In this document: positions 13,683-35,637 of the stretch, piece by piece
Numbering within the stretch: position 1 is the stretch's first letter
Layout of the letters: each line of letters starts with the position of its first letter
Source: an uncultured bacterium
GTDB lineage: Bacteria; CSSED10-310
Direction of reading: 5' to 3'
DNA: 64,000 nucleotides
Assembly: GCA_964404285.1 (NCBI GenBank)
Contig: CAYOJK010000001.1
Coordinates: 83,797-147,796, forward strand
Position numbers and translations under genes: made by a program
Notes under the pieces: generated by a model
Told to the model about the DNA's origin: nothing
The model's input: the letters and a program-made list of their open reading frames with translations, nothing else
Databases searched by the model: none

Positions 13683-13698
13683 AGTCTGTTACACTCAA

Positions 13699-16645: not shown

Positions 16646-18217
16646 ATGTTAGCGAAAATTCAAACCAGTTCAATTTTAGGCGTTGATGCTCAACCGGTAT
16701 TGGTTGAGATTTTTATTCGATGGGGTCAATTGCCTTGTTTTCTTACGGTCGGTCTTCCGGATACGGCAGTTCGGGAAAGTAAGGAGCGGATTTTTGCCGC
16801 TTTGAGTCATTCAGGGTATCGTGTTCCGCCGGCCAAAATCACGATCAATCTGGCTCCGGCAGATGTTCGGAAAGAGGGTTCTTCTTTCGATTTGCCTATA
16901 GCGGTCGGCCTTTTATCAGCGATGGAGATTTTACCCGATCGTGAATACCCGGACACACTGATCATTGGGGAGTTATCTTTGGATGGTGATATTCGATCGG
17001 TTCGAGGTGTTCTACCTATTGCCGCCGGCGCCAAAAAACATGGCTGGAAACGCATGATAGTTCCGATTGAAAATGCGCCGGAGGCATCTTTTGTCGATGG
17101 TTTGACGGTTTATGGAGTAAAAAACTTACTGGAAGTCATTCAAATATTGAATGGCGAAAGAACAGTTAAACCTTTCGACAAAACTCTTTTTCAGAATCGA
17201 GAGATCGAGCGTAACACCGATATTGATTTTTTCGATGTCAAAGGCCAAGAGCATGCGAAGCGTGCAATAGAAGTCGCTGCCGCCGGAGGCCACAACATTA
17301 TTCTGATCGGGCCTCCCGGTTCAGGTAAAACCATGTTGACGCGGCGTCTTCCGACGATTTTACCCGCGCTGTCTTTGGAAGAAGCGCTTGACATATCCAA
17401 AATACACTCGATTTCCGGTCTGATCGATCCTGGGCAGGGGTTGGTCTTTACGCGGCCGTTTCGAGCGCCTCATCATTCGATATCGGATGCGGGGTTGATC
17501 GGCGGCGGCAGTTATCCGATGCCGGGGGAGGTCAGTCTGGCTCATCACGGGGTATTGTTTTTAGACGAAATGCCGGAGTTCAGACGTCATGTTCTGGAAG
17601 TCATGCGGCAACCGCTCGAAGACGGTGTTGTCACATTGACGCGGGCTCTGGCATCAGTGACCTACCCGTCCCGCTTCATGCTGGTCGGAGCAATGAACCC
17701 CTGCCCATGTGGTTATTACTCACATCCGGAAAAAACCTGTTTGTGCAGACCGGATATCATCGCTAAATATCTGGGTAGGATTTCCGGGCCGTTGTTGGAT
17801 CGCATCGATTTGCATATCGAGGTCAACGCGGTCAAATTCAGTGATCTGCAGGATCGCCGAAGAGGAGAATCTTCCAAATCCATTCGGGAGCGGGTGGAGG
17901 CGGCTCGAAAGATTCAGCAGGCTCGGTTTTCACAGTCGGCCTCGTTAAATGGCAACCTAGCATCCCATTGTAATTCACATATGTCATCCCGAGAAATCCG
18001 GACTTATTGCAAACTCAATAGTGACGGGTATCGTTTGATGGAACACGCCATGAAAAGGCTGGGGCTGACCGCTCGGGCCTATGACAGAATATTGAAAGTC
18101 GCCAGAACCATTGCCGATCTGGCGGATTCCGAAACCATCGAATCGCATCACCTTGCAGAAGCCATTCAGTATCGTGCGCTGGACAGATCGCACTGGACAC
18201 ACGCGCATACCTACTGA
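16646..18217 (+). CDS. comM: Mg-chelatase-like AAA+ ATPase ComM/YifB
   Basis: 523-aa ORF with an N-terminal Lon-like domain, Walker A GPPGSGKT, Walker [10 protein letters not shown] and a C-terminal ChlI/ComM domain. There is a strong GGAGGA RBS. Its 3' 520 bp recurs at 35.0-35.6 kb. Confidence 0.93.
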
Positions 18218-18292
18218 ATTTATTCCTCCTCCCTCCTCCTCATTACCATTAACCCTCCAACCGGCACGCCAACCCGGCGTGCCGACCTTTTT
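17696..18292 (+). repeat. Left copy of a ~595 bp direct repeat (comM 3' end + terminator), putative attL of the integrated island
   Basis: The sequence from CTGCCCATGTGGTTATTACTCACATCCGGAAAAAACCTG through the terminator T-run recurs at 35045-35637 with roughly 90-92% identity and no large indels. Confidence 0.85.
18262..18292 (+). terminator. rho-independent terminator of comM
   Basis: GC-rich hairpin CGGCACGCC-aaccc-GGCGTGCCG followed by ACCTTTTT. Confidence 0.8.
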
Positions 18293-18536
18293 GGAAGAAG
18301 AAATAAGGGTGATGAAACGCTGTAAATTACCAAACAGGCATATAAGAAGATCGTTCACACTATCTGGAAACCCAAAACCAAATTGCAAACATTACTTGAC
18401 ACTAACAACGACCGGATTTATTGACATTGTGATCAGGCTATTCCCGATTGCCATTTAACGTGGGATTTAACATGCTAAATAGGGTGGGACGTGATAATTG
18501 CCAAAGGAAAAATCAAGAAACAGATCAGTATCTTAT

Positions 18537-18830
18537 TCACTGTTTCTTTTCTTGCAGAATAAAGATGTTTTTCCTGATCGAGCCTTCATCTACGTTTTTA
18601 GATTTGGTTAATAATGCTGTTTCCAGATTTACGAGCATTTTAAATCTATCGTGACCGCTACTTGCATGACCATCAACATTACATCCGTGTAATTCGTCAA
18701 AATTTGGATACGACAGAACAAGCCCGCTTTTTAAAGAACCCACTACTGATCCACTCCGAGGATCTACAATGTCAATATCTACCATAAGCTCTATTTCACC
18801 TTCTGTTTCTGGGAAAAAAACTTTTGCCAA
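18537..18830 (-). CDS. hypothetical small protein (island cargo)
   Basis: 97-aa ORF with a TTG start only and no recognisable motifs; listed for completeness. Confidence 0.25.
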   Translation of the reverse strand: MAKVFFPETEGEIELMVDIDIVDPRSGSVVGSLKSGLVLSYPNFDELHGCNVDGHASSGHDRFKMLVNLETALLTKSKNVDEGSIRKNIFILQEKKQ

Positions 18831-19097
18831 TTTTGACTCATATAAATAGCTGCGGATATAATGATGATGTGTGCGTAAAAAGTAATTTTCAGGAAAATCG
18901 ATGTTGTATTTTCAAGGGTTTGCGAAGGGGATTCGAGCTAAAAACAGGGTTTTTACATTTGCATCAATGATCAGTAGAAGCCAATATATCAGATGTATTT
19001 TAAAATTTTTCATAACCTCTCCTTTTTACTCGCCTTTTTCATCATGTCCTCAAGATTTTCTTTTATTCGAGCAGGAGTGAAGTGAGGTGGTCAAGTA

Positions 19098-19134
19098 AAA
19101 ACGGACAGAATCATTAAATGTGACAATTTCATGG
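19098..19134 (-). pseudogene. Remnant 5' end of a paralogue of the 167-aa RHS-adjacent (immunity-like) gene
   Basis: About 37 bp here match 27417-27453 at ~85% identity. It encodes MKLSHLMILSVFT followed by a stop, versus MRLSHLTILSVFFMF... for the intact gene at 27451. Confidence 0.5.
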
Positions 19135-19638
19135 CTAAACCGATGGTTCATTATTACTTCTAACACAACGAATCTGTCGAATCATGAAAAGTATCGGGAT
19201 TAGCAAATGCAGAAGAGATGCCCCCAAATAAGCTACTATTTGAAACGTTTCGAACGGCGCTGCAAAGAGATGTTTCCTTGTGTAAAATATGAAAAACAAG
19301 TGAAAGCCTATTGTAAAGTAACAAAACATCACAAGCATGCTATTGGGTTTATTCCAAAAAGCGATCCCAAACGAAATGAGAAGCAACCATAGCAAACCCT
19401 CTGAAGCAGATAGCCAAAACGGATAGTCTAAGTATTCTTCGTCTGATACGTAGCTTTCATTTGATTGAGAGACATAAGTAATGACATCAGGCAAGTAAAA
19501 CAACAAAGCCATGATGGCACAAAAAAGAATCATAGCACCAAATTTAACAAGCTCTTTTGTATTTCGTTTTTCAGGTGTTGGGCTTATCCCATTCGTCCTC
19601 CTTTGCCGTTTGTCAGAAAGCCTCACCTCCTGAAGCAT
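19135..19638 (-). CDS. orphan cassette: small polytopic membrane protein whose N-terminus is homologous to the RHS C-terminal tail
   Basis: With the ATG at 19636-19638 the product starts MLQEVRLSDKRQRRTNGISPT..., matching the last residues of the RHS protein (LQEVKLYDKRQRRTNRLSPT). Three or four hydrophobic helices follow. The six-frame ORF extends to a GTG at 19713. Confidence 0.4.
   Translation of the reverse strand: MLQEVRLSDKRQRRTNGISPTPEKRNTKELVKFGAMILFCAIMALLFYLPDVITYVSQSNESYVSDEEYLDYPFWLSASEGLLWLLLISFGIAFWNKPNSMLVMFCYFTIGFHLFFIFYTRKHLFAAPFETFQIVAYLGASLLHLLIPILFMIRQIRCVRSNNEPSV
19576..19635. repeat. 60 bp direct repeat, copy 1 (matches the RHS 3' end at 27463-27522)
   Basis: TGTTGGGCTTATCCCATTCGTCCTCCTTTGCCGTTTGTCAGAAAGCCTCACCTCCTGAAG versus TGTTGGGCTTAATCTATTCGTCCTCCTTTGCCGTTTGTCATAAAGCTTCACCTCCTGAAG; 55 of 60 bases identical, same orientation. 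Confidence 0.9.
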
Positions 19639-20213
19639 TTCTTTCGTTTCCGGGTCGATGGATTTTGTAAAGCGGCAAGATAACCGGCCCGCGCTTCCGA
19701 GCGCATAAACCACATTATAGCTCCAATCAGCGCAGGACCGAATAGAAACAGAGCATCACAAAAACCGACCCCCTCATTTTTCTCATTTTTACCTGATCGC
19801 AGTGAATCAATTAGATCGATAAAATAACTTATGATCAGCGTTACTATAAGAAATTGCGCATACACATATTTTGTGAACAAAGCGATAAGCAGCAATATTC
19901 CAGTTGTGATTTTAGATTTCTTGCCCGTTCCCGCCGCCGCTAAAAGTGTCAATACCGTAATAAATGCGCCTTGCATTTCGAGCATCGGTTGTGCTGCGTA
20001 CAGTGTCATCATTGGGGAAGTGATAGACAGAACCAAGGCAATCAAACCGGCGGTCCACGCAGCTCCTGGCGCTGCACTCTTACGGGCCGCCCATATCGTC
20101 GCAGCGATTGTCCCCACCCAGAAAATCAACGACAATAAACGAGACGATAAAAAAGATGGACCGCCTATGAAAAATAAAACGGCAAGAATCCACGAATGAA
20201 GAAACGGCCACAA
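19623..20213 (-). CDS. hypothetical polytopic membrane protein
   Basis: 196-aa ORF with 5-6 hydrophobic helices and a TTG start; its stop lies inside the 60-bp repeat. There is no motif evidence. Confidence 0.35.
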   Translation of the reverse strand: MWPFLHSWILAVLFFIGGPSFLSSRLLSLIFWVGTIAATIWAARKSAAPGAAWTAGLIALVLSITSPMMTLYAAQPMLEMQGAFITVLTLLAAAGTGKKSKITTGILLLIALFTKYVYAQFLIVTLIISYFIDLIDSLRSGKNEKNEGVGFCDALFLFGPALIGAIMWFMRSEARAGYLAALQNPSTRKRKKCFRR

Positions 20214-20448
20214 ATTCTGCGATTTCGTGGCAATTACAAAAGCTCGAAAATCATGATTTTTTAGCGCTGATTAAATATTCAAACCATTAAGGCTATGGTC
20301 GGCTCCATCCCATGTCGGCGGCCCTTGCGTCAAAATGAGGGCTTTGTAATTTATCAAGCAGGTTATTGCGAGGATGCCTATTATTATGACCGAAATTAAT
20401 GATCTGTTTTTGTTTGCAATAGGGTTAAGACTAATCATTAGGCTTATG

Positions 20449-20925
20449 TTAATTTATCGAGACGAAAAGAGTCAGACCTTTAATAATAGCCGTTGCATCC
20501 AGTTCCAGGTTCACCTTCGAGGTTCCGTTCATGTCCGGTGCGTATTTCTGCAATCTTTCGAGGAGTTCCAGGTTGCTTACCGGCACATAAGAAGTCGAAA
20601 GTACGGCCCGACACTCGCGCCCGTCCATCCGGACCAAGAATTCCTTGTCCTGGGAGAGCTTTTGGAGCCATCGGTTCACGTTCTGCGCCCGAAGATCTAC
20701 GAGATCATCATCGCACCGCCGGAGGTATCCGGCCTGCACGCCGATCCGGTTCGCGAGCGTATTGAGGGCCTGGGATTGCAACGGCGATGAATTCATGAAT
20801 CCGCTTAACTTCATCGTGCCGTCCGGGTTCATCCGGATCTCGGATACTGGCAATGTCATGTCGAAGAACCGCTTTTCCCTTTCCCGCAACGTCTCGATTG
20901 CTTCAGATATGCTGATCAGTTTCAT
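20449..20925 (-). CDS. hypothetical protein (GC-rich mobile module), translationally coupled to the Cas4-like nuclease
   Basis: 158-aa ORF starting MKLISISEAIE with an AAAGGAGG RBS; its ATG overlaps the stop of the upstream nuclease gene. The six-frame ORF continues upstream to 21012. Confidence 0.55.
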   Translation of the reverse strand: MKLISISEAIETLREREKRFFDMTLPVSEIRMNPDGTMKLSGFMNSSPLQSQALNTLANRIGVQAGYLRRCDDDLVDLRAQNVNRWLQKLSQDKEFLVRMDGRECRAVLSTSYVPVSNLELLERLQKYAPDMNGTSKVNLELDATAIIKGLTLFVSIN

Positions 20926-21731
20926 GCTGCCACCTCCTTTACGTGGAACTGCCGCATCCCGGAATTTCCTTTCCATTCGATGCATTCCTGAAGATACTCG
21001 CAGTCCGTGCACATCCAGTTTGGCGTCGGGAAGAAGATCCCGGTGCAGATTCCCTGCAACACGGCATTCGCGACATTGAACAGCCGGACATAATCGCTTT
21101 CCGTCCGCTGCACCTTGAAGCTCACAATTCGCGTCTGCTTGGACTTCGTGATGTTGTCCAGCCTGATTCCCGGCTCGATCCGGTCGAACAAGTAGCGGAA
21201 CGCGTAGCTATACGCAGTGAGCTGAAGGCTGGCGTTCACCGTGCTCTCGTCCATGACACGCGCCGATGTCTTGTGCTCGACAATGGTATCGTCGGATTCC
21301 AGCAGGTCGATCACGCCCTTCAGATCCATGTCGAGTATTTCGCCAGTTTCCGGATTCACAAGTGGAATCCTAAACTCTACTTCTACGTCCAGCGGCTTTT
21401 TTTCCGGAAGATTCTCCATGTACTTGAGGATCATCCTCTGGCCGGTTTCGGTGAGTGAATCATGGTTCTGTCCGTCCTTGAACCGAACGTTTTGAAACTT
21501 CCATGCGTACCAGTCTGCCTTGAATATCCGGGCAACTTCTTCCTCGGAGATTTTCGGAGCATGATCTATCCGCCGGCGATGGAGCCACTCAAGCGCGGCA
21601 TGGAAAGAGCTTCCGAATGCCAGCGCAGCAGGCTTGAATTTCGGCTCGATCTCGTCGATGTAGGAAAACCTGTATTTCAAGCTGCACATCATATACAAGT
21701 TGATTTGGCTGACGCTGATGTAATCACGCAT
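20922..21731 (-). CDS. Cas4-like PD-(D/E)XK nuclease with Fe-S cysteine cluster (RecB-family exonuclease)
   Basis: The N-terminus has QINLYMMCSLKYRFSY (the Cas4 motif I region with the first Cys). The core has D...EHK, and the C-terminus has CTDCEYLQEC, so the four Cys spacing resembles the Cas4/AddB Fe-S cluster. AGGAGG RBS; the ATG at 21731 sits just downstream of a TTG. Confidence 0.7.
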   Translation of the reverse strand: MRDYISVSQINLYMMCSLKYRFSYIDEIEPKFKPAALAFGSSFHAALEWLHRRRIDHAPKISEEEVARIFKADWYAWKFQNVRFKDGQNHDSLTETGQRMILKYMENLPEKKPLDVEVEFRIPLVNPETGEILDMDLKGVIDLLESDDTIVEHKTSARVMDESTVNASLQLTAYSYAFRYLFDRIEPGIRLDNITKSKQTRIVSFKVQRTESDYVRLFNVANAVLQGICTGIFFPTPNWMCTDCEYLQECIEWKGNSGMRQFHVKEVAA

Positions 21732-21797
21732 CAATGCCTCCTTTCTGCTTGGCTGGCAGGGAAATTATCCCGTGCCAGCCCGTTTCGATGTTTGCGG

Positions 21798-22271
21798 TTA
21801 CGCCGCCTGCTTGACCATGTCGTCGATCAGCTTGCTCGCCTGGGACTTCGTCACGTCGTTGAGATCATTGACTTTGAGGATCTGGATCAGGGTCGAAAGT
21901 GCTTCGTCGCCCTCGATGCCCCTCTCAGCGAGCAGCCGGAACAGATAACGCCGCTGGGATTCGGTCATCGCGCCGTTCTTCTTCCCGCTGTTCTGTTCCC
22001 GCTTGAACTGGCTCGGAATAACGGAACCGTTGGAGCAGTTTCCCTTGTTCGCCTGGATGACGCTTTCCGGGAGTGTCGAAGCGGGTCTTCCGTTCCCGTT
22101 CGTCCGGCTCTCAAGCTGGCGGGACACGGCTGCTTCCGCCTCCTTGAACAGGTAATCCGCGACTTCCGCGATGTCGTTGAACTCGGTGTCGCATTCCATG
22201 GAGACCGTGAAGGTCTCGTTTTCGTAGTCTCCTGTGGAGACCTTCTTCGAGAAATTGGTCAGGATTCTCAT
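21798..22271 (-). CDS. hypothetical protein (GC-rich mobile module)
   Basis: 157-aa ORF with a strong AGGAGG RBS and no recognisable domain; co-oriented with the nuclease and replication-relaxation genes. Confidence 0.5.
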   Translation of the reverse strand: MRILTNFSKKVSTGDYENETFTVSMECDTEFNDIAEVADYLFKEAEAAVSRQLESRTNGNGRPASTLPESVIQANKGNCSNGSVIPSQFKREQNSGKKNGAMTESQRRYLFRLLAERGIEGDEALSTLIQILKVNDLNDVTKSQASKLIDDMVKQAA

Positions 22272-22607
22272 GGCTTTTACCTCCTTTCCTGACAGGTTCG
22301 GTTACACAGCTTTATTGCTGTCGATTGGGTTATTTATTTGTAAATGAGCGATATCACTCTGGTGATAGCCGATAAAGAAGTGTCCATGCTTGAAGTATGA
22401 ACGCCTCTTCAACGGCCTCCTGCAATCTGCCGGAAACCCATTTCTTGCCGGGAATCCGGCAGATCTGACGACTCTGGCAAGTTTCGGTCATTAAGGACGC
22501 ACTTATGGTGTTTCGGCGCCCCCAGGAAGCCCCAGGAGATTCCTCGCTGGCTCTCGGCAGCCTCTATTGATCCTGGCTTTCAAGAGTAAACGAGGAATGA
22601 CTCTGGA

Positions 22608-23522
22608 TCATTCGGGAATCAAAGCCATGGGACGGTCATAATCGCTGACAGCGCGATACCATATTGGCTCAAAGATGCTTGATGGATTTTCCAAGTTGAT
22701 TCTGTCGAAGGTCGTGAACCAGAAGAAGCCGCTGCCCCTTCCGGAATCGCTGGCCTTTATTGTCGTCCTGATGAGGTTACCCATCCTCCGGTCGTTGGTC
22801 GTGACCGTCAGCACTCGGAAATTCCGCACGCCGTATCTGTCGACATAACCCTTATGCTTCCACCATTCATAATACCCACGCTGCTTCAGCTTGAATTTCC
22901 GATGCCCGATGGTTCCCCTGTCGATCTCCACATACGCGCACATCCTGCCCTTGGGAGTCTGGATGCACATGAACCCGTCCGGAACCAACGGAACCCGAAC
23001 ATGGTGGCCTCTGTCATTTTCAATGAAAATGGTGTCGCCAACAGCCCGATCCTGCTTCCAGAACAGGAAGTCCAGATCTTCACGATCTCGGCATGCGGCA
23101 AGGATCGCTGCCCTGAAGTCGTTTCTTCTCAGCGTATGGTGAAGCAGGAAGTAGTAGTTACGGCTGGAATCCACCCTTGATACTTTTCCCGGTTCTATTC
23201 CGAGCTGTTCTGCAATCAATCTCCGGCCATGCGAGCCGACAACGTATATTGACGGGGGTGAACCTTCGCCAACGAATAACGGGAGATCAACTCGATCAAG
23301 CAATCTGTTTTGCCAGAGCAGGTAAAGCCTGATCCTGGCTGTTTGAAGGTTTGAGTTGATCATGAGCGCGACCTGCTTGGCCGTCGCGAACCTCAGCTCG
23401 GAGACGGATTTGACGATCTGGATGTCGCGCTCAGTTATTTTCATCCTCGGTGGGTTTACCGTGTCCCTCTTGAATCTTGATCTCCGCTTCTTTCTTCTTG
23501 TGAAAAGTGGGTTTCCATTCAT
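22608..23522 (-). CDS. replication-relaxation family protein (Replic_Relax, plasmid/ICE-type)
   Basis: 304-aa ORF. The N-terminal wHTH segment (ITERDIQIVKSVSELRFATAKQVALMI) and overall architecture match the replication-relaxation family. The start overlaps the stop of the upstream small ORF. Confidence 0.65.
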   Translation of the reverse strand: MNGNPLFTRRKKRRSRFKRDTVNPPRMKITERDIQIVKSVSELRFATAKQVALMINSNLQTARIRLYLLWQNRLLDRVDLPLFVGEGSPPSIYVVGSHGRRLIAEQLGIEPGKVSRVDSSRNYYFLLHHTLRRNDFRAAILAACRDREDLDFLFWKQDRAVGDTIFIENDRGHHVRVPLVPDGFMCIQTPKGRMCAYVEIDRGTIGHRKFKLKQRGYYEWWKHKGYVDRYGVRNFRVLTVTTNDRRMGNLIRTTIKASDSGRGSGFFWFTTFDRINLENPSSIFEPIWYRAVSDYDRPMALIPE

Positions 23523-23779
23523 TTTTCTGGATACCTTATGCCGAATGTCTTCGCGTAGAATTTCAGACGGGAGATGAATGAATCGGTTTTGGATCGAGGT
23601 ATGATCGCGATGCTGTTCGCCCTTTCGGTTTCCCTGAGCGCCATACGGATCAATGGCCGGGGAACATTCGAGACGATTTCAAGGAATTGCTTCCAATTCT
23701 TCTCATTGAGTTGCTTCGCCAGGCTTTTTGCTTGAATGCGTGAGATAATTGGATAGAATCGATTTCTTTTTTTTTTCAT
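23519..23779 (-). CDS. hypothetical small basic protein
   Basis: 86-aa ORF translationally coupled to the replication-relaxation gene. Confidence 0.4.
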   Translation of the reverse strand: MKKKRNRFYPIISRIQAKSLAKQLNEKNWKQFLEIVSNVPRPLIRMALRETERANSIAIIPRSKTDSFISRLKFYAKTFGIRYPEK

Positions 23780-23986
23780 TGTCGTTAGTTTTGTTTATCC
23801 ACAAGGAAATGTGGCTGATTAGTAAGGTTTTACGGCAATCAGAGTCGTCCGTTGTTTCTTACTGGAAGCAGTCCGTCGTTGCGTCTCGTAACTTCTAGTT
23901 CATAAATACTTGGTTCTAGTTTCTTCCAAGTGGCACCGGTCAGTGAAATCTTGGAACGGAAGCGGGTTCCGTGTAAAAGCTGTGGA

Positions 23987-24352
23987 CTATTGGCCTGTTT
24001 TTTCTTCCTTCTGGAAGTGGAAGATTGCGAGTCCAGAATGAGGCAGAATGCGGTAGTTAAGCGATGCGAACCGGCCGGACGGCGTTCGCTTTTTCTCAGC
24101 GATATCGATGATCGGCCTTCCGTTTAATCGGAATCTGCTGAGGGATCTTACACGATCCCAGGCTGACGTATGCGAAACCCCGATATCCCTCGCCAACCTT
24201 GCCTGCGATGGATTACATTTCCCGTCCTGGTTCATGTATGTTGCGAGAACGCACAAAGTCTTCCAGTCTCGGTCTGATATTGCCGAGAGCAGCCCGGACT
24301 TCCGGGCTTCTATGTAAAATTTGACGAATATTTTCTTGTTCTGGTCTTGCAT
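23987..24352 (-). CDS. helix-turn-helix DNA-binding protein
   Basis: 121-aa ORF with a wHTH-like segment (QARLARDIGVSHTSAWDRVRSL). Confidence 0.5.
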   Translation of the reverse strand: MQDQNKKIFVKFYIEARKSGLLSAISDRDWKTLCVLATYMNQDGKCNPSQARLARDIGVSHTSAWDRVRSLSRFRLNGRPIIDIAEKKRTPSGRFASLNYRILPHSGLAIFHFQKEEKTGQ

Positions 24353-24455
24353 GATTATTCGATCTGAGCGAATTAGATTACATAAATATTGCTCCGTAGA
24401 ATGGACGAATTATTTTTTCCATTCCAAGTGCGCATGGGTAGCGGTGTAGGACTTG

Positions 24456-24761
24456 CTAGCTGTTGGGCGGATGAGCTTTCTGAGCTGAAATATCTTCCGG
24501 TCGGAAGCCCTCCTGAATGAGTTCATCCCTAGCGTCCCGGGCAAGGTTCGGAAACAACTGGTCGATCCTGGCGTTAAGCAGGAACTGCAACTTCAGAGCG
24601 TTCTTGAGATTCGGCGACTTGAACCCGGTTTCCCAGTAGCCGATTGCCACGGCTGTCTTGTGACCGAGAAGGCTTGCCGCCTTCTTGCGGTTCAGTCCGC
24701 GCAGCTTTCTGACAAGCGCGACTTGGTTTGGAGGATTTGGTTTTATGGGTTTAGTATTCAT
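24456..24761 (-). CDS. XRE-family HTH transcriptional regulator
   Basis: 101-aa ORF with the HTH_3 signature (NRKKAASLLGHKTAVAIGYWETGFKSPNLKNALKL). Confidence 0.75.
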   Translation of the reverse strand: MNTKPIKPNPPNQVALVRKLRGLNRKKAASLLGHKTAVAIGYWETGFKSPNLKNALKLQFLLNARIDQLFPNLARDARDELIQEGFRPEDISAQKAHPPNS

Positions 24762-25082
24762 GGAGCATCCTCCGGATCTCCGGATTTATTAGGTCTCTTA
24801 ATCCTACCAACCTGTCCACAGATACGCTCCCAAAATTGTTTCCCATGAGAAAAAAACCGTCGATCAAAGACGATTCTTTTATCTAAACTATGCGATTTTC
24901 CATGTGGATAACTCGGTCTGAATGTACCTTGACCCGGTACGTGGTACGGGTATTGTACGTACGTTTCTTTTCATCCCGCGCAGGTATTTCCACCTCAAAT
25001 ACTTCCAAAGAGAAGCAAAGTTGCCTGATCTTGCCCGGTATCTCCGTTATGCTGGAAGCAGAAGTAACTTCCAGCAAACAAA

Positions 25083-26829: not shown

Positions 26830-26947
26830 GCTTCGTAAGTATAATAGCAGCGGATTAATTAGCTGGCAATGAACACCACTTCCCCTGAGAAGTATTTGTG
26901 GGGATAAAATCTGAATATTTCATCCTCTTTTGATCCTCCTGGGTTTG

Positions 26948-27451
26948 TCATTTCTTCAGATGGAAGACTGTTGTAGCAACTATTGGGTCTATGCAAGGAG
27001 TTGTCTTATATTCATTTAGATTTGTTTTGTCCACCTTTTCTGGCATTTTATATGCTGGTAACGTGAACTTGAGTTCATAGTCACCTTCTGGAAGCTCAAA
27101 GTCTTTTAAGTTTATAGTCTTTTGGCAAACAAGATAACTTGAGCTTGGCAGATAGAAGAAAGTCCTTCCCATTGGGAAATGCACATCTGTAACAAGGAAT
27201 CCTTTGTTAATTGCCGGATCATCTAGTTTGACAAAATGATAAGGTATGTCAGAGCCTACTCTTTCCAAGATCTTATCATCGAGAATACAACCCTCGGCAT
27301 CATCTGCACACATCAATTTAAGATTAATCTGCATTTCTTCACATTCATAAAATGTCTTTTTCTCCAGTTCGATTTCCATCTTTACCTGGCTATATGCAAT
27401 TTGGTGGAACATGAAAAAAACGGATAGTATCGTTAAATGTGACAATCTCAT
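26948..27451 (-). CDS. secreted small protein, candidate immunity protein for the RHS C-terminal metallopeptidase toxin
   Basis: 167-aa ORF with a signal-peptide-like N-terminus (MRLSHLTILSVFFMFHQIAYSQ). Its ATG overlaps the RHS stop codon (ATGA), indicating translational coupling. Confidence 0.5.
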   Translation of the reverse strand: MRLSHLTILSVFFMFHQIAYSQVKMEIELEKKTFYECEEMQINLKLMCADDAEGCILDDKILERVGSDIPYHFVKLDDPAINKGFLVTDVHFPMGRTFFYLPSSSYLVCQKTINLKDFELPEGDYELKFTLPAYKMPEKVDKTNLNEYKTTPCIDPIVATTVFHLKK

Positions 27452-30400
27452 GGTAACTCCTTTGTTGGGCTTAATCTATTCGTCCTCCTTTGCCGTTTGT
27501 CATAAAGCTTCACCTCCTGAAGGACCTTTTTGATATAGGGAATATTTCTAATCTCTTCAGGTCTCTTATTATGGGGCTCATACTGTTTTTTTAGAACCGT
27601 ATAATCATATGCTTCCTGTGCAGCAGTCCCCAGGTTGCTGATTGCGTCTTCTGCGTGCCCAATCTCATGTATCAATACACCTGCTAACTTTTTGTTTCTT
27701 GTAACGAGCACGTCCTCGACGGTGATTGTAACGCCGTATAGAACTGTTAAATCGGGATTTATAGTATCTGTCACTTTAGTCCCTGTGCTATCAAGTTTCA
27801 TTGCGGGAGAAATCCTTGCTTTATGTGTTCCTTCGGCTGGTATACCCGTTGGATCTACAAGGTTCTGGCCAGATGTTATAGTTAAGTCTGGATTTTGAGT
27901 TCCTCTATATTTAGCAAGAGTGCTTTTTACTGTTGGAGATGCATTTTCTAAACTTAAAACCATTCCCTCCAATGCTTTTGAATGGGGTCCTCTGAAAAAT
28001 ATTTCAAGACCGTTAGGATCTGTGAAATTTACAGGGTTATTTTGGCAAAATGTATAGCGGTTCCAACTTTGCGGGTTTTCCAAATATCCTTTTATAGCAT
28101 CAGGACTTAAAAACCTTGGAGGCAATTCATAGTTTGTTTGCTCGGTGATGGCATTAAGATAACGAGCGTTGAAATAGTGTTTCTGGGTTGTAGATTCGAA
28201 CAGTTTACCAGTGTATCGAATATCTTGTGCGGAAAACACCGGACTTCCAAGATCATCAAAATCTGCGCCAAAGGGCTCGTAATTGTGCACCTCATATGGC
28301 AGGCCGCCTGTTTGCTCCGGCCATACTATTGTGGCAACATCATTAGTGAACGCCATTGGGGAGCCAAGGTGATTAAGGTGCGCAAAAATGATAGTAGTTG
28401 TTGCTCCATCATCTGTAACTCTTACTAAGAGTTCTCCACCTAAATAAATATTATCAATGAAAAGCATTGCTGATGTATCGAACTCTGATAGTAAAAGTTC
28501 TCCGAGATATGAATAAATGAATGTGTTGCTTCCTTCTGCCTTGTAAATTCTCTTATCTATTCCGTCATATCGGTATTGAACTGTAGAGTCGGTATCGATC
28601 AGTTTCCCTAGCTCATCGTAGGTGTAAAGATAAATGCTGTCATCGGTCATATTGCCGTCAGCATCATGAGTAACGCTGGCAATCTTGTTATTGGAATAGG
28701 TGAAGCTTGAGGTGTCTGAGGGATTGGTTTTGGCAACACTCAGAATATTGCCCACGCTGTCATAGGAATAGGTGAAATTCCTGCTCCCAAGTCCGGTGGC
28801 CGTCTCAATCCTGTTCAAATTGTCATACGTGAAGGTGGTTGTTCCAAGTTCGGTGATGTTACCAAAGGCATCATAGGCAAAACTATCGTTCACTAAATCA
28901 TCAACGCCGATTTGCGTGACCCAGCTCGATGGCCGATTTCGAACATCATGAGAAATTGTCGTTACAACTCCATTGCCAAACACATACTCTTCAAGCCCGC
29001 CTGCCGGATTGTGCAGGAGACCATTTGCCATGGTCTGTGTTCCGGAACTCCCGGTAAGAGATATTGTTTCCAGTAGATTTGTTCCCGCTCCATATGTGTA
29101 AGAAACATCGATTCCGGACGGATAAACGATATTGTTGAGGTTCCCCAGCGTGTCATATCCAAAGTAATAACTTGCAGTCAGTGCTGGACTTGCAAGGTTT
29201 ACATCTTTTAATAGATTGCGTCCCTGGACATCAAATTCCGGCCAGACTAAAATGCTCTCCTCGTTAAGAGACACACCTTTACGCACTACAGCACCGGTTC
29301 GGTGATTGAAAGCCTCCACATAAAAACCTGGAGCGTCATCACCGGTAAAATTCAATATGTCATCTCCATCATAGTAGTAGTCCACCTTGATTTGATCTGC
29401 TCCGCTGCCGGCATTCTTTGAAGTTAATCTGTAGATCTCATCATACGTGAAGCTGATAACCCTGCCAGAAGCTTTGGAGATTGTCTCGACTTGGCCGGAA
29501 TTATAATAGGTGTAAGTGACGGTGCCTGTTTCCGGATGTGTCTCGCTTGTCAAGCGCCCTAGGCCGTCATAGATAAACGTCCGGTCAGAACACGTCACAT
29601 CATTGGGATGATCTACCAACGTCAGATTATCCAGGACATCATATCCATAGTCGAAAAGCTTGCTGTCGGCATCGGTAATCTGATCCAGCCTGCCCAGAGC
29701 ATCATATAATTTCACTGTTGTCTGGGTTCCTCTAGTAATAGTCACTTCATTTCCGTCATAGGAATAGGTCGTTGTTCCGTCCGGATCAGTCACGTCAATC
29801 AACCTGTTGAGGGGGCCATATGTGTAATACATTCCGTCTGTTGAAGAAGACGAAAATGATGCTTCCGAGATGAAATTTGGATTCCCGACAGCATCGTATT
29901 CCTGATTAATGTAGGATGGCCCGGCTTGGTCGCTCGGAATTATGGTCTGTTTCAATCTGCCTAGAGCGTCGTAATTGTAGGTTATAGAATACGATCCCTG
30001 TGTTGATGTTACCTGTCCGCCAGTCACATCATATGTCAGAGCCGTTTGCAGGTCTGAGGGTGGTGTTATCTGGATCAAATGCCCCAGATCGTCATAAACA
30101 TAATTCGTCGTGTTCCCGTTCGGATCGGTGATGCTTGTCACTCGGCCTGTATCCGGGTCAACTCCTTGTGAAAACGTCATGTAACTTGAATCCGGCAACT
30201 GCTGAGGAGTGGTGATTTGAGAAATGGTTCCGGCATTCCAGGCAAATGTAGTCACCTTGGCTTGTGCATCTGTAATCGTGTAAAGATTGCCTGCATCTCC
30301 TGCTGAAGTGTAATAAGCATATCCCACTATAATGTCAGGGGATCCGGTGGACGGATCTGTCCACTGATTCACCGACTGCAAGCGAGTAAATTTGGGGTCA

Positions 30401-33400
30401 CCTAGACTACTGAAATACTCACTTCGTGTTCTGGATTTGACTGTGCCACCGGTGTTCCCCTCTATTATTTCTTCTTGGTAAACTCCGCTCAGAAAATTGG
30501 CTGTCCTGAAGTTAGAATATCCGGAACAAGCACTTTCCCAGACATAAATGTAGCTGGTCGTCCTCTCAGCGGTATCGGAGTAGTTGTATTCGATCACATT
30601 TCCAGGCATTCCGAGAGCCACATAATTCTCAAGGTCTGCCAGATCCCCATCGGCACCTGGATAGATGTATTCTATTTTGGAGCTTACCTGTCCGCGGGAT
30701 TCCTGTTGCTTCAATAGCGGAACCTGGCTTGAATACAGGTTTTGATTGTGACCAGGTTCTTGCGAAACGGTTTTAATGAGTTGCGAGATCCTTCCCCCTT
30801 TTGTGGTGCCATGTAGAATTGTATCAGTTTGAGTTATCACCGGGAAATGGACATACTCCCGGTCATTGTTTAGTTTACGCCACCTGGAAAGCCGCCTGGA
30901 CTCATAGGTTTTTGTTTCCGTCTTTACTGGCGATCCCCCGGATACCAGACCATCATAGTAGATAATCTCCGCGGACAATCCGATTTTCCACTCCGCGATA
31001 TCCCCGAGATCTGTGGAGTAATAATTCCAGTAGCGATATTGCGTGTCATTACCCAAGGGGTCGTTCACAACCGTATACTGATCCAGCGGGCCATAGGTCG
31101 CGATGCTGTAGGTTGTTGTTCCTGCCGTGACATCTGAGCCGTCTGCCGTTCTGGAAACTATCGAGATGTCTGCGTAGGTTCGATCATAGATGTTGCTTCC
31201 ATCGAAAGCTTTCAGGTGGAACTCGTGCTCTTCATGGGCATATGTGATGGTGCCGCCAGTTGGAAGCAGAATATCTGTCAGAACTCCGAAGGCCGGTGAT
31301 GCAATATCACCGTCATAGCTGTATGCAGTAGACATGTCGCCTGGATCTCCGCCAGTTCCGTTTGCACGAGCAATAACCGTATCCAAAGCGTTCCTGCCAT
31401 AACCGAACTCTGTGACTGAATATTCAATATAGACGCTGTTGTTCGGGCCTCTTATTTGCGTCAGAAATCCGGATGCGTAATCAAACTCAACGACTCTGCT
31501 ATAGGTGTCGGTCACGTTGTCCACGACCATACGTCCGCCTTCAACTCCGTAGGCGATGGAGATACGATTACCGCTTACTCCATCAGCATCCGCGCTCCGG
31601 ATCTCGCTGACCGCAGCGCAATCCTTCTGCCAGCACTCAACCAGATTGGTCTCCGTATAAAAATCTGAGCGATCGAAGTAGTATTTTATCCCGCTGGTCG
31701 TTGTCAGGAGAAGATCATAGGCCAGCCCGCTGACGTTGATTTTTTCAAGCTTCCACAAGTCACTCGTATATTTTGGATATCCTCCCTGACTTCCTGAATG
31801 TGGCACTTCATATGCGACATGCCGGGACCCGTCAGGCATCACGATGACAGGCGTATCGCTATCCATATTTAGGATTTTCCCAAAATGAATATCCCAACCA
31901 AGACCAAGACAGGTTTCCGGGATGAATTTTTGAGTGAAAATATTGTCGTCACCCCACGGCGTCCGCTCTTTGATGCAGCTGCTATATGTCCTCAAAACAT
32001 TTACGTCCAAACCGCCTTTGCCCGACAGATGGAGGTCGGTATAAGTCAGGTTTACCTTCCCGGTGAATGTATCGATAGACTCTTCCGGCATTCCGGCCAG
32101 ATTGACATGGTTGGCATCGAATCCTGGCGTTGAAAAATGTTCAGGATAATACACGTAATCATCCCCTGGATGCCCTCGATCTTTATTCGTGCTGATCCAA
32201 CAGAAATTGGCTACTCCGACAGGGTTGTCTGCCGTCAGTGTCACATATTCCGGATTCGGATAGGCATAGATGCTGCTCTTCTCGGCAGTGACGGTATAGG
32301 ATGCGGGGAATGTTCCGGGATTGAGCGCAAAGTAGTAGTCTCCTTCTGTTGTGGTTTCTCTTGTCAGCCCGCCAGGATTCAGCGTTATTGTGGCTCCGCT
32401 GACCGGGCCTGTGGGAGAACGCACCTTGCCGTGGATCATTGCACATACAACCTGGATATCACGCTCATATGTCCTGGGTTCGGAAACGACAACCGTTTCC
32501 ATAGATTCCTGGCAATCATCGACTAGAGCAACAACATAATACGTTCCCAGGGGAAGAATTGTCGGGTCATCTGCTGTGGTGTATACGCCTTCTACATTGG
32601 TTTGAACAGTGAAGTAGAAGTCTTCCACCAGATTTATAACAATTACATCCTCTCCGGAGCCGACAGGCGTTTCTCCGGGATATTCACCGATTGTAACCGT
32701 TCCGGTAATAACCGGTTTTTCAAGATAGACTTGAAAATAGACAGGGGAGCCAAAGTCTGCGTTGGCGCAGGTTGCCCGAACCCAGATATCTCCCTCATAG
32801 TTCGGTAACGGGCCGATCCATGAGGCATTACCCTCTGAGTCTGTGGTTACATTATCAAGTAAGGTGTAAGAACCATACTGCGTTGTTGACCATTCAAAAA
32901 CGACATTCTCACCGGGGACACCTGAAAGCGGATCGTCTGTGGCTATCAATAATTTTGGTCTCTTCTGAGGATCTCCAACATACTCCGAGCTATAACACCA
33001 AGCGTAATAATCGTAACCGGTTCCTACTGCCCAAAGGCCAAGGCCATAACTGGACGGACTCGCTGAGAACCAATCCTGAACCAAACCGGACGGAAGATCG
33101 TAATAATTATACTGGTCATCGACGATTGTAAAATCTTCGCCGGGATTGATCTCATACCAGTCAGGTCGAGTATTCCATGTCACTGAAGTCTCATACCAGT
33201 CTTCGGTAACATTGAACATCCATCCATGCAAAAGAGTTGACGACGGATAAGTATCGTAAACGTAAAGCCTCAGGGTGCCACCCAAGACATTGTATGGATA
33301 TGAGGGGTTATTAAACTTAAGATACGTGTAAGCTTCCCTGGGCTGCGTGACAACTATTCTTCTTCCGAAATTCAAGTCTGTGCCGTTAAGGTTCTGATCG

Positions 33401-34554
33401 GGCCATCTCTGATCCACAAAAGCATCATTTGTCGGCTCAACCTCTGTTGTGTAAACTAGCCGAGCGACAAGCGGCTCTTCCAGGTCTTTTGTGGGGACAC
33501 CGGATTGATTGTTGCCGCTGGCCATGGTCAACATCGTGGATTGGGCAAAGGTCGCCGGAATGGATAGAGCCAGCAAGATCGCGATTGATAAAACGGCCTT
33601 TCTTCTCATTTTCATAACTCCTCCGATGAGAAACAGGGCAATAAAAATTCCCCAAATGCTCATGCTCGGCAGTGGGGGAAGCACATATTCAAACCATCCC
33701 ATATCAAAATCTGAACTCCAATAAGGGTATTCATCACCCTGGTCTGTTCCCGCATCGAAGCAGGGAGACATCTCATTGATTCGGTAGTTCGAATCCCAAA
33801 GCGGGTCTTGGCTGATGCTGTTCGGACCGGCTGAGCAACCAACATAGTTGTCGTCCAAATTATTCCAGACATCGTTATAATCCAGTGTGGGAAGGGCTGA
33901 TCCGGAGCACCGGATTCCGGCCGTTCCCATCCCTGTCTGGCCGTTTCCCGCGACGATGTTGTCCTGAATGTCTGCTGATGACTCATAAGCCCGGATACCG
34001 TCGTTACTGTTGCTTGCGATGGAATTATAGTGCACAAAGGCTGACGAATAGACCAGTTCAAGCCCGATTCCCCCGTTTTCAGCGATCAGGTTTTTATGAA
34101 TAATGCCATCACCGAGGAGATAGAGTCCGCCTCCTGCATTGTTGATTATCCGGTTGCCAACGACTTCAACCGTTTCGAAATATCCATGGACGGCAAATCC
34201 AGACGAGCTTCCTCCGGTTATTGTGAACCCTTCCAACCTTGAGTCGTTTGCCAACTCTACAACAGGAAATGAACCGTTCCCGTCAATTACCGTGACTCCC
34301 GACTTATAGAAATAGTCATTGTAACCATCCGTTCCCTGGTCATAACTTTTCAGGGTTACTCCATCTTTCATCGTGACTTGCTCCTGGTAAGTTCCCGGAT
34401 AAACGACAACTTCATCCCCATATTCCGCGGCTATCAAAGCTTCATGGATAGTTGGATAATCCTGACCGCTGGGGCCAACTGTGATCGTGGCTGCAAATGA
34501 TGAAAAAGAATACACCAAGGTAATTAATAAAAGCATCAGGATTGCCAGTTTCAT
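27448..34554 (-). CDS. RHS/YD-repeat polymorphic toxin with C-terminal HExxH zinc-metallopeptidase toxin domain, fused in frame to an N-terminal ~313-aa parallel beta-helix protein
   Basis: Single 2368-aa frame. Residues 1-313 carry signal peptide 1, a pectate-lyase-like beta-helix and a C-terminal hydrophobic anchor followed by RRK. Residues 314 onward begin MKMRRKAVLSIAILLALSIPATFA (signal peptide 2) preceded by a GGAGGA RBS, followed by Ig/carboxypeptidase-regulatory-like domains and many YD repeats (YTYDALGRL, YGYDVLDNL...). The RHS core ends NPVNFTDPNGL, and a ~180-aa C-terminal domain has LIHEIGHAED. Confidence 0.85.
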   Translation of the reverse strand: MKLAILMLLLITLVYSFSSFAATITVGPSGQDYPTIHEALIAAEYGDEVVVYPGTYQEQVTMKDGVTLKSYDQGTDGYNDYFYKSGVTVIDGNGSFPVVELANDSRLEGFTITGGSSSGFAVHGYFETVEVVGNRIINNAGGGLYLLGDGIIHKNLIAENGGIGLELVYSSAFVHYNSIASNSNDGIRAYESSADIQDNIVAGNGQTGMGTAGIRCSGSALPTLDYNDVWNNLDDNYVGCSAGPNSISQDPLWDSNYRINEMSPCFDAGTDQGDEYPYWSSDFDMGWFEYVLPPLPSMSIWGIFIALFLIGGVMKMRRKAVLSIAILLALSIPATFAQSTMLTMASGNNQSGVPTKDLEEPLVARLVYTTEVEPTNDAFVDQRWPDQNLNGTDLNFGRRIVVTQPREAYTYLKFNNPSYPYNVLGGTLRLYVYDTYPSSTLLHGWMFNVTEDWYETSVTWNTRPDWYEINPGEDFTIVDDQYNYYDLPSGLVQDWFSASPSSYGLGLWAVGTGYDYYAWCYSSEYVGDPQKRPKLLIATDDPLSGVPGENVVFEWSTTQYGSYTLLDNVTTDSEGNASWIGPLPNYEGDIWVRATCANADFGSPVYFQVYLEKPVITGTVTIGEYPGETPVGSGEDVIVINLVEDFYFTVQTNVEGVYTTADDPTILPLGTYYVVALVDDCQESMETVVVSEPRTYERDIQVVCAMIHGKVRSPTGPVSGATITLNPGGLTRETTTEGDYYFALNPGTFPASYTVTAEKSSIYAYPNPEYVTLTADNPVGVANFCWISTNKDRGHPGDDYVYYPEHFSTPGFDANHVNLAGMPEESIDTFTGKVNLTYTDLHLSGKGGLDVNVLRTYSSCIKERTPWGDDNIFTQKFIPETCLGLGWDIHFGKILNMDSDTPVIVMPDGSRHVAYEVPHSGSQGGYPKYTSDLWKLEKINVSGLAYDLLLTTTSGIKYYFDRSDFYTETNLVECWQKDCAAVSEIRSADADGVSGNRISIAYGVEGGRMVVDNVTDTYSRVVEFDYASGFLTQIRGPNNSVYIEYSVTEFGYGRNALDTVIARANGTGGDPGDMSTAYSYDGDIASPAFGVLTDILLPTGGTITYAHEEHEFHLKAFDGSNIYDRTYADISIVSRTADGSDVTAGTTTYSIATYGPLDQYTVVNDPLGNDTQYRYWNYYSTDLGDIAEWKIGLSAEIIYYDGLVSGGSPVKTETKTYESRRLSRWRKLNNDREYVHFPVITQTDTILHGTTKGGRISQLIKTVSQEPGHNQNLYSSQVPLLKQQESRGQVSSKIEYIYPGADGDLADLENYVALGMPGNVIEYNYSDTAERTTSYIYVWESACSGYSNFRTANFLSGVYQEEIIEGNTGGTVKSRTRSEYFSSLGDPKFTRLQSVNQWTDPSTGSPDIIVGYAYYTSAGDAGNLYTITDAQAKVTTFAWNAGTISQITTPQQLPDSSYMTFSQGVDPDTGRVTSITDPNGNTTNYVYDDLGHLIQITPPSDLQTALTYDVTGGQVTSTQGSYSITYNYDALGRLKQTIIPSDQAGPSYINQEYDAVGNPNFISEASFSSSSTDGMYYTYGPLNRLIDVTDPDGTTTYSYDGNEVTITRGTQTTVKLYDALGRLDQITDADSKLFDYGYDVLDNLTLVDHPNDVTCSDRTFIYDGLGRLTSETHPETGTVTYTYYNSGQVETISKASGRVISFTYDEIYRLTSKNAGSGADQIKVDYYYDGDDILNFTGDDAPGFYVEAFNHRTGAVVRKGVSLNEESILVWPEFDVQGRNLLKDVNLASPALTASYYFGYDTLGNLNNIVYPSGIDVSYTYGAGTNLLETISLTGSSGTQTMANGLLHNPAGGLEEYVFGNGVVTTISHDVRNRPSSWVTQIGVDDLVNDSFAYDAFGNITELGTTTFTYDNLNRIETATGLGSRNFTYSYDSVGNILSVAKTNPSDTSSFTYSNNKIASVTHDADGNMTDDSIYLYTYDELGKLIDTDSTVQYRYDGIDKRIYKAEGSNTFIYSYLGELLLSEFDTSAMLFIDNIYLGGELLVRVTDDGATTTIIFAHLNHLGSPMAFTNDVATIVWPEQTGGLPYEVHNYEPFGADFDDLGSPVFSAQDIRYTGKLFESTTQKHYFNARYLNAITEQTNYELPPRFLSPDAIKGYLENPQSWNRYTFCQNNPVNFTDPNGLEIFFRGPHSKALEGMVLSLENASPTVKSTLAKYRGTQNPDLTITSGQNLVDPTGIPAEGTHKARISPAMKLDSTGTKVTDTINPDLTVLYGVTITVEDVLVTRNKKLAGVLIHEIGHAEDAISNLGTAAQEAYDYTVLKKQYEPHNKRPEEIRNIPYIKKVLQEVKLYDKRQRRTNRLSPTKELP
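27463..27522. repeat. 60 bp direct repeat, copy 2 (inside the last codons of the RHS gene)
   Basis: See copy 1 at 19576-19635. Confidence 0.9.
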
Positions 34555-34790
34555 TACAATTCCCTCCTAACTAAATCAAACGTCTATTGCTGATCATATC
34601 CCCGGAACTGGTCTGAAGTCAATCAACGGTATTTTCTGGTGTGACCGGAGAAAGTTTGACATCATTTACATCCTCGCTGGCAAGGCGCTTTAATGCGTAG
34701 TAAAATACTATGACCGCAGATTTTCCCGGTATCCTCAAAGTCATATCCGTCATCACCAGTTACCCCAAGAAACAACCTGCTTCGGTGAAA

Positions 34791-35042
34791 TTACGGATTA
34801 CGTGGGTCATACCCAATAAACTCGATAATCTTTAGGATCAGTTTGTCCTGGGGATACGAGTGAGACATCTCCCAGTTGTGAATGGTGCCTTCGTCAACAC
34901 CGATTATGTTGGCAACATCTCTCTGGAAAAGCTTCAAGTCCATCCGTCTCCTGCGGATATGGTCGCCAATCGTTCTTGGCGTTTCCGGGTACGAGAAAGG
35001 CAATGGTTTCGAGGCTTTGAGCGTAAGTGGCAACTGTTCCAC
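34791..35042 (-). CDS. XRE-family HTH regulator at the island edge
   Basis: 83-aa ORF with an HTH_3-like segment (IRRRRMDLKLFQRDVANIIGVDEGTIHNWEMSHSYP). Its GTG start abuts the right comM repeat, so the start is uncertain. Confidence 0.55.
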   Translation of the reverse strand: MEQLPLTLKASKPLPFSYPETPRTIGDHIRRRRMDLKLFQRDVANIIGVDEGTIHNWEMSHSYPQDKLILKIIEFIGYDPRNP

Positions 35043-35044
35043 GC

Positions 35045-35637
35045 AACCCTGCCCATGTGGTTATTACTCACATCCGGAAAAAACCTGTTTGTGCAGACCG
35101 GATATCATCGCTAAATATTTGGGGCGGATATCCGGGCCATTGTTGGATCGTATCGACTTACACATTGAGGTCAACGCGGTCAAATTCAGCGATCTGCAGG
35201 ATCGCCGACGAGGGGAATCTTCCAAGTCCATTCGGGAACGAGTGGAAGCCGCTCGACAGATTCAGCAGACGCGGTTTTCGGAATCGGCCTCGTCAAATGG
35301 CAACCTGGCATCACACTGCAATTCTCACATGTCATCCCGTGAAATCCGGACCTATTGCAAGCTCAACAGTGACGGGTATCGTTTGATGGAACATGCCATG
35401 AAAAGGCTGGGGCTGACGGCTCGAGCCTACGACAGAATATTGAAAGTCGCCAGAACCATTGCTGATCTGGCGGATTCCGAAACCATAGAATCGCATCATC
35501 TTGCAGAAGCCATTCAGTATCGTGCGCTGGACAGATCTCACTGGACACAGGCGCATACTTACTGAGTTTGCTCCTCTTCCTCCTCATTACCATTAACCCT
35601 TCAACCGGCACGCCAATCACGGCGTGCCGACCTTTTT
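35045..35637 (+). pseudogene. orphan 3' fragment of comM (right copy of the ~595 bp repeat, putative attR) with its own terminator
   Basis: It encodes the last ~175 aa of ComM ([69 protein letters not shown]...) with several substitutions relative to the intact gene and no N-terminal ATPase domain. A six-frame ORF at 34882-35565 extends upstream into unrelated sequence. Confidence 0.85.

Follow-up and report, generated by a model that had tools for sequence, protein, structure and literature searches.

A truncated two-recombinase element between two alleles of the comM 3′ end in an uncultured bacterium

ComM is a helicase that helps to integrate heterologous DNA. Large serine recombinase (LSR) elements are found in Mg-chelatase/ComM (YifB) genes, and the sr1WO prophages of Wolbachia are reportedly among them. 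Phage 21 and e14 in E. coli icd, and islands in tRNA and tmRNA genes, carry a replacement 3′ end of their target gene, and the ssrA islands of Dehalococcoides are said to do likewise. Here, we describe an island next to comM in a 64,000-nucleotide stretch of an uncultured bacterium of the CSSED10-310 lineage (contig CAYOJK010000001.1; "the window", the whole stretch analyzed, whose positions are used throughout). The island lies between an intact comM gene and a second, orphaned copy of the comM 3′ end. We read it as a composite, decayed integrative element in a comM hotspot, which was truncated, with comM re-formed by a second allele, and which spread by homologous recombination; we put the probability of this reading at about 0.58.

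Mg-chelatase-type genes show the strongest enrichment among LSR targets, with 12.4% of the predicted site-specific LSRs directed at them, and competence genes are also enriched (Durrant et al. 2022, PMC10083194). Like the LSR elements in Mg-chelatase/ComM genes (PMC10083194), the one in the window has split comM at a conserved position within the NPCPCG motif, combines LSR-family genes with cargo and defence genes, and has empty sites in relatives. The canonical elements, however, have the integrase on the junction and disrupt comM; the window element is truncated and lacks that integrase, and comM is whole by virtue of the second 3′ allele. Phage 21, e14 and the tRNA islands likewise lie between a full-length target and an orphaned 3′ fragment that has diverged from it, but there the repeats are attachment sites with an adjacent integrase and a fixed crossover; in the window no integrase is adjacent, and strain comparison reveals variable, homologous crossovers. 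The AbaR/AbGRI (Tn7-like) and defence islands of Acinetobacter share with the window the use of comM as a hotspot for mobile genetic elements (MGEs) and defence genes, and recombination with foreign alleles as a possible restorer of comM (PMC11472951). In contrast to them, the window has no TniABC-type transposition genes, the insertion falls at the end of the Mg_chelatase domain, and serine-recombinase chemistry would be involved; Pfam scans of the main island open reading frames (ORFs) detected neither a transposase nor a TniB-type ATPase. The kind of element and its comM target were thus already known. The two-recombinase family, which is widespread, and its comM breakpoint are described here from metagenomes.

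The comM breakpoint, the junction recombinase and the two comM alleles

The end of comM and its terminator recur, as direct repeats, at positions 17699–18292 (left) and 35047–35637 (right). The copies gave a single blastn alignment of 595 columns with 90.8% identity, 3 gaps and E = 0. The first-pass annotation, made from the sequence alone, had reported repeats of ∼90–92% identity at 17696–18292 and 35045–35637 and was right to 2–3 bases; its view that the right copy encodes only the C-terminal part of ComM also stands, since residues 352–523 only are encoded there, and the left copy completes a ComM of 523 aa. The same G+C-rich hairpin and T-run closes both copies. The longest identical run between them (72 bp) lies at their extreme 5′ edge (17699–17770 = 35047–35118), and the next-longest runs measure 38 and 32 bp.

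From metagenomes, 80 loci encoding relatives of the island's LSR (LSR1) were fetched, and closer LSR1 relatives were examined afterwards. A ComM match was found in 1 of the 80 loci (L122) and covered residues 2–355 only. Among the closer relatives, comM 5′ fragments were present in L181 (residues 1–358) and in ERZ724084 (L204–L208, a 352-aa gene), and a further one in the IMG/VR contig L202 (residues 66–351). In these four lineages a second, convergent LSR (LSR2) directly abuts the truncated comM, and the comM 5′ fragments at the LSR2 junctions stop at residues 351–361. The junction copies of LSR2 are 49–85% identical to one another and 18–22% identical to LSR1. When the LSR2 junctions were aligned, the break fell within the AAC/CCC codons 351–352 of comM, and the comM homology of the right copy in the window starts in these same codons (the CCC(C) run). 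Because it starts at the LSR2 breakpoint, we take the right repeat to be the complementary half of an LSR2-type insertion. The 5′ edge of the right copy is, as far as the aligned junctions indicate, a genuine site-specific insertion scar.

A tblastn search of the window for LSR2 and for the coupling protein of the family detected no relic of either. LSR1 is 7.5 kb and 8.2 kb from the island ends, and no integrase is found at the junction; LSR1 is predicted to be a different family member, internal to the element, and not the junction enzyme. The first-pass annotation had remarked that the integrating enzyme was not obvious. Intact relatives account for this, because they hold LSR2 on the comM junction, and the window copy has lost it.

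An apparently complete element was found in ERZ724084 NODE_455 (L209/L204), with an LSR1 >90% identical to that of the window (same 90% cluster). Its order is coupling protein, cargo, ParB, DUF932 (324 aa), PD-(D/E)XK, a 161-aa gene, Replic_Relax, an 86-aa gene, HTH_36, HTH (helix-turn-helix), a 58-aa gene, LSR1, cargo consisting of AAA_13 and type I restriction-modification (RM) genes, LSR2 and the comM 5′ part. The synteny from DUF932 to LSR1 is common to the window, L180–L183 and L209: DUF932, PD-(D/E)XK, o157, Replic_Relax, o86, HTH_36, HTH, o58 and LSR1 occur in the same order, with 60–90% amino-acid identity to the window genes, and the cargo slot opens ∼100 bp after LSR1. Nucleotide homology between L209 and the window is confined to 20486–26849 (82.9%), and its edges are abrupt. 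The left edge of the backbone is a sharp breakpoint within the DUF932 frame, at residue 147 of 324; the right edge is ∼100 bp beyond the LSR1 stop, where cargo varies between family members. Of the genes of L209-type elements, the window lacks those for the coupling protein, ParB and LSR2, and an RHS locus fills the slot that the AAA_13 and RM genes occupy in L181/L209. With the coupling protein and LSR2 absent, the window element is truncated and would not be a complete, potentially mobile element.

Relatives of the window also provided empty sites. In a sister lineage (ComM cluster variants P0121 and P0122; backbone 81–85% identical to the window in nucleotides), haplotype L099 has comM, the terminator, a ∼125-bp spacer and, immediately after it, the AAA_14 gene whose window position is 43.6 kb. 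Measured against L099, the window contains an insertion of 25.1 kb (18384–43518), and not one of 17.3 kb. In L093–L098, nothing intervenes between the comM terminator and the sequence that adjoins the right copy on its right in the window (35638 onward); the match is 92% identical over 1121 bp, and 93.6% identical over the 530 bp past the terminator. The predicted empty site, comM joined to the MNT region, thus exists at 92–94% identity, and both arrangements bear out that the island is horizontally acquired DNA at a comM hotspot. A scan of a genome collection with ComM returned a closest species representative only 58% identical and no close empty site.

Past the terminator, the left copy continues in line into ∼90–125 bp of the L099 spacer, as far as the position at which L099 changes over to sequence matching the window from 43519 onward; this spacer homology is clear to 18383 and weak to ∼18410. 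The right copy runs on into L093-type sequence. The two copies differ at 38 synonymous and 5 non-synonymous codons among 173, which argues that both evolved under purifying selection in working genes. Any two of the left copy, the right copy and the sister lineage are 9–10% apart, whereas the comM 3′ ends of the sister-lineage haplotypes L093 and L099 are identical, and therefore one window copy should come from a third, species-level lineage. A second comM 3′ fragment was found in 0 of 80 other comM loci. The two 595-bp repeats would accordingly represent two functional comM alleles, and not the attachment sites of a working system.

Homologous exchange and the history of the locus

The strain of assembly ERZ3460579 (L005, L184, L192) was compared with the window. 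Its upstream backbone is 2.2% diverged (182 mismatches over 10716–17785), but only 8 mismatches were found from 17786 to 36829; divergence is back to ∼1% after ∼37000, and homology ends at 38608. The shared block begins 87 bp inside the left repeat, past the recombinase breakpoint, and runs through the right repeat into the neighbouring genes. A fixed boundary between host and island is thus not observed, and the repeats do not bound the transferred DNA as had been proposed. Since the limits of the block (17785/6 and ∼37000) ignore the repeats, its transfer is attributed to a double homologous crossover, and not to site-specific recombination at the repeats. Inside comM the strains differ by 12.9% at 17351–17698 and 8.0% at 17699–17785, but by 0.8–3.2% left of this patch. 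The diverged patch (∼435 bp) spans the recombinase breakpoint in otherwise conspecific strains, which shows that interspecies recombination took place inside comM and that diverged alleles recombine in the population.

These comparisons are consistent with the following history. A conjugative or mobilisable element of the family, with a backbone of T4 coupling protein, ParB, DUF932, PD-(D/E)XK, Replic_Relax, HTH_36, HTH, small ORF, LSR1, cargo and LSR2, would have been inserted by LSR2 between comM codons 351 and 352, leaving the orphaned comM 3′ part that is now the right repeat. Comparison with the family indicates that the element was then truncated to the segment from mid-DUF932 to LSR1, with the RHS toxin cargo flanking it and LSR2 and the coupling protein absent. 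An intact comM may have been re-formed by recombination with the allele of a second lineage, which would have brought the terminator and the empty-site spacer; this step could have been a recombinational salvage or an assembly, with one illegitimate or module-to-module join. The strain comparison indicates that the block as a whole is then exchanged between strains, through homologous recombination in comM on one flank and segment Y (Table 1) on the other. RecA-type recombination between the repeats might eventually delete the island and yield an intact hybrid comM.

Three parts of this history are well supported: (i) an LSR2-type insertion made the right junction; (ii) at least one illegitimate event truncated the element and removed the junction integrase; and (iii) recombination brought the second comM 3′ allele that keeps the gene whole. 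Recombinational assembly is favoured because canonical relatives have no restoring copy, the left spacer ends at the hotspot boundary, and the reconstructed transfer was homologous. Recombinational salvage of an interrupted comM has also been raised for Acinetobacter (PMC11472951).

Several observations count against this history. Three orders of events fit about equally, each with about one illegitimate join: (A) a disrupted comM was salvaged by an imported intact allele; (B) a partial element with an orphaned comM end was imported into an intact locus; and (C) aberrant excision captured flanking comM, followed by homologous docking. A relic of the RHS tail ties 18384–20485 to the cargo and adds a junction at ∼18384 that the simplest salvage model does not predict. 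A conspecific strain lacking the island was not found, and neither the informative sites (29 vs. 23) nor the segment distances, which are three-way equidistant, decide which copy is native. The module is inverted relative to comM when compared with L181/L209, but has the same orientation as in L122. The far (comM 3′-side) end of an intact family member was not seen, and 34555–35046 has no match to a family end. Finally, the role of LSR1 is putative.

The strongest competitor, which we consider possible but distinctly less probable, is that the composite arose in a donor by aberrant excision, as in specialised transducing phages, and then docked homologously into an intact comM through the 595-bp homology. 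The side with LSR2 and the coupling protein would have been lost, comM 3′ end, terminator and spacer gained, and the left copy would be island-borne. Such an event would explain at once why comM is whole, why LSR2 is missing and DUF932 truncated, and why an L099-type spacer lies beside the left copy; the right copy and segment Y would be left as the resident arrangement, as in L093. A second illegitimate junction is needed, however, since the RHS-tail relic makes 18384–20485 cargo-related. In addition, the one transfer open to reconstruction, that involving L005, was a double crossover and not Campbell-type docking; no mismatches were found in L005 over ∼35134–36400, where roughly 13–28 were expected; and the spacer stops just where L099 itself joins the downstream backbone, a coincidence that aberrant excision does not predict.

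Less probable still, in our estimate, is the model of the first-pass annotation: an island complete in itself, with a comM 3′ end of its own as part of the attachment site, that integrates and excises site-specifically by means of LSR1 or an unrecognised enzyme and restores comM as it enters. The repeats bound the island and comM is intact, the empty site joining comM to MNT exists, the longest identical run adjoins the recombinase breakpoint, and LSR1 is intact and lies beside a cI-like regulator and a conserved small ORF. But four independent family members (L122, L181, L202 and L204) disrupt comM and carry no restoring copy, and neither do 80 other comM loci; the family junction enzyme, LSR2, is absent from the window; and the element is truncated. 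The differences from the L005 strain run 72–87 bp past the breakpoint, with no fixed crossover, and near-identity continues through the right copy for another 1.3–1.9 kb. A degenerate attP pattern, searched for both among viral contigs and in the loci, had 0 hits, and no attP-type junction was found. Serine integrases with identical right half-sites would have attL = attB and attR = attP, and directionality would be lost. The assignment of the repeats as attL and attR is accordingly not supported, the colinearity of the left copy with the L099 spacer also speaking against it. The longest identical core had been put forward as the candidate crossover. The 72-bp run was rejected as crossover evidence, since such a run has a rough ∼6% chance of occurring in 595 bp at 9% divergence, and it only reflects the identity of two alleles in every model.

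It is about as doubtful that the paired comM 3′ copies serve as built-in homology arms, with which a recombinase-less island is knocked into an intact comM by transformation and double crossover. If this were true, ComM would stay functional, the host competent and the island able to keep spreading, and the structure would have been shaped by selection as a strategy, and not by chance in the course of decay.

An assembly chimera of two strains joined at the shared comM sequence is very improbable: the source of the window is a metagenome assembly, with numerous short contigs ending near 19.1 kb, but these breaks coincide with an insertion sequence (IS) polymorphism, and both copies, too far apart in sequence (9%) to collapse, are spanned by single contigs of the independent assemblies ERZ3460579 (1.08 Mb), ERZ4239849 (232 kb) and GCA_046128275.1 (378 kb; 100% identical to the window, compared over 6646–28217). 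An old in-chromosome duplication of the comM 3′ end, between whose copies unrelated DNA later accumulated, had already been discounted in the first-pass annotation and is just as improbable: the copies are about equally distant from the sister species, but the 38:5 ratio indicates that both evolved within working genes, two strains with 2.2% backbone divergence share the island at 99.95% identity, relatives have no duplicated fragment, and the right copy begins exactly at the recombinase breakpoint.

Gene content, cargo and the variable region downstream of comM

The features of the island and of the adjacent region are collected in Table 1. G+C content is heterogeneous, with 0.40 at 18–20 kb, 0.53–0.54 at 21–23 kb and 0.39–0.49 across the RHS gene, so that the range of 0.39 to 0.54 within the interval agrees with the early remark on uneven composition. 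The toxin, recombinase and replication genes noticed then were likewise recovered as the RHS gene, a large serine recombinase and Replic_Relax, together with PD-(D/E)XK and HTH regulators, and with MNT on the right. In a PHROGs scan of the small ORFs, only a nicking-initiator-like match (Replic_Relax) and a match of unknown function (the DUF932 fragment) were obtained. A plasmid database search returned no annotated relative above ∼30% identity for LSR1 or LSR2, and 34555–35046 had no match in other loci.

Table 1. Positions of the island, its genes and the adjacent variable segment in the window
Feature	Position	Strand	Remarks
Intact comM	16646–18217	+	523 aa; ChlI, Mg_chelatase, Mg_chelatase_C (Pfam); 100% identical to P0001
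Left repeat	17699–18292	+	comM codons 352–523 and terminator; hairpin 18262–18284
Spacer	18293–18383		Homologous to comM-downstream spacer of uninterrupted L099; 76.7% over 90 bp
AT-rich 2.1 kb	18384–20485	−	Holds o97, o192, o196
o97	18537–18830	−	No Pfam or PHROG match
o192	19135–19713	−	No Pfam or PHROG match; RHS-tail relic and multi-pass membrane protein
o196	19623–20213	−	No Pfam or PHROG match
DUF932 N-terminal half	20485–20925	−	
Surviving family backbone fragment	20486–26940		6.4 kb; mid-DUF932 through LSR1 and ∼100 bp
PD-(D/E)XK	20922–21734	−	
o157	21798–22271	−	
Replic_Relax	22608–23522	−	
o86	23519–23779	−	
HTH_36	23987–24352	−	
HTH_3	24456–24761	−	
o58	25083–25259	+	58 aa; overlaps LSR1 start
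LSR1	25252–26829	+	525 aa; Resolvase, Recombinase, Zn_ribbon_recom domains
Cargo	26948–34554	−	RHS/YD-repeat toxin and putative immunity gene
Putative immunity gene	26948–27451	−	167 aa; downstream of RHS; predicted immunity function
RHS/YD-repeat toxin	27448–34554	−	2368 aa; RHS_repeat Pfam match
Non-coding right end (RHS promoter region)	34555–35046		Ends at junction J1 (35046/35047)
Right repeat	35047–35637	+	Orphaned comM 3′ part from codon 352, coding to 35565; terminator 35606–35629
MNT	35601–36038	−	
Segment Y	35638–43518		Variable, also absent from L099; first 530 bp follow comM directly in L093
486-aa gene	36281–37741	−	
Bro-N	37917–38630	+	
Type IIG RM (DUF7149/DUF7814/Eco57I/TaqI_C)	38998–42804	+	

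The RHS locus bears YD repeats, a DPNGL boundary motif, the 167-aa downstream ORF and a 60-bp tail relic. The C-terminal domain past DPNGL (within 27448–28050) matched no Pfam family and carries a HEIGH motif, which suggests a zinc-metallopeptidase-type toxin. The relic is a direct repeat (19576–19635 vs. 27463–27522) with 55 of 60 positions identical (92%): o192 opens with a copy of the final ∼20 RHS toxin codons, and its remainder encodes an immunity-like multi-pass membrane protein. ORF o192 looks like an orphan toxin tail with an immunity remnant, separated by the 6.4-kb recombinase module from the main RHS–immunity pair. The relic argues that 18384–20485 is cargo-related and not host flank; o192 is linked to the island in every other contig examined, so that this linkage carries no information on origin. 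In one strain an IS (DDE_Tnp_1_4 transposase, 437 aa; L005 2482–3795) lies between o97 and o192, at window position ∼19133–19151, and many short metagenome contigs stop at this point.

LSR1 is an intact large serine recombinase in which the family-invariant N-terminal R9-K10-S11 motif is present. An ORF of 55–58 aa that overlaps its start codon is kept in every family member (L180–L183, L209) and lies divergently to the cI-like HTH gene; it may encode a directionality factor or a regulator. The ∼100 bp past the LSR1 stop (26830–26940) are conserved in L181 and L209 (TTAGGCTTC...GTATAATAGCA), and the cargo diverges right after. This tail may be a recombination site or a cargo-insertion boundary; it was considered as the LSR1 attachment site and set aside, as its function is not inferable from the tail.

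The LSR2 family (P0255–P0374) is unusually conserved, with 65–85% amino-acid identity in the best 120 hits, whose sources, where named, were Planctomycetota, Chloroflexota, Patescibacteria, Deltaproteobacteria and a Thiodiazotropha symbiont. Some versions have an added HTH domain (∼645 aa). In L209, additional cargo between coupling protein and ParB (L209 1161–3266) consists of an AAA_23/AAA_15 ATPase and a radical SAM/SPASM protein. L209-type elements appear, from such contents, to ferry defence genes.

The region downstream of comM is a variable defence hotspot. In the window (35638–44640) it holds MNT, Bro-N, Type IIG RM and AAA_14, and in L093 (11645–21410) an HTH/M78 peptidase pair, an HMUDK_hel/thymidylate-kinase kinase-helicase, a radical SAM gene and Type ISP RM. 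The right part of segment Y differs in strain L192, whose hotspot (5534–9567) has a longer Bro-N and a 225-aa gene. Farther right, a backbone stretch at window positions 52500–54000, with genes for a 186-aa protein and a TPR protein, showed up to 135 mismatches per 500 bp with L192, far above the surroundings, and L192 lacks ∼54057–56241 of the window.

Implications for comM and its elements

Insertion of MGEs in comM is thought to blunt natural transformation, and the restored-comM configuration described here is an unusual but explicable state. For island finding, the locus cautions against equating a target gene's long, diverged direct repeats with attachment sites as a matter of course. 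The comM breakpoint of the two-recombinase family is pinned to one codon pair, and this may serve the prediction of attB and attP. On our reading as a decayed composite, the locus would be a natural example, in an uncultured lineage, of an element that decays while comM is kept whole via a foreign allele and the toxin-bearing remnant spreads by homologous recombination.

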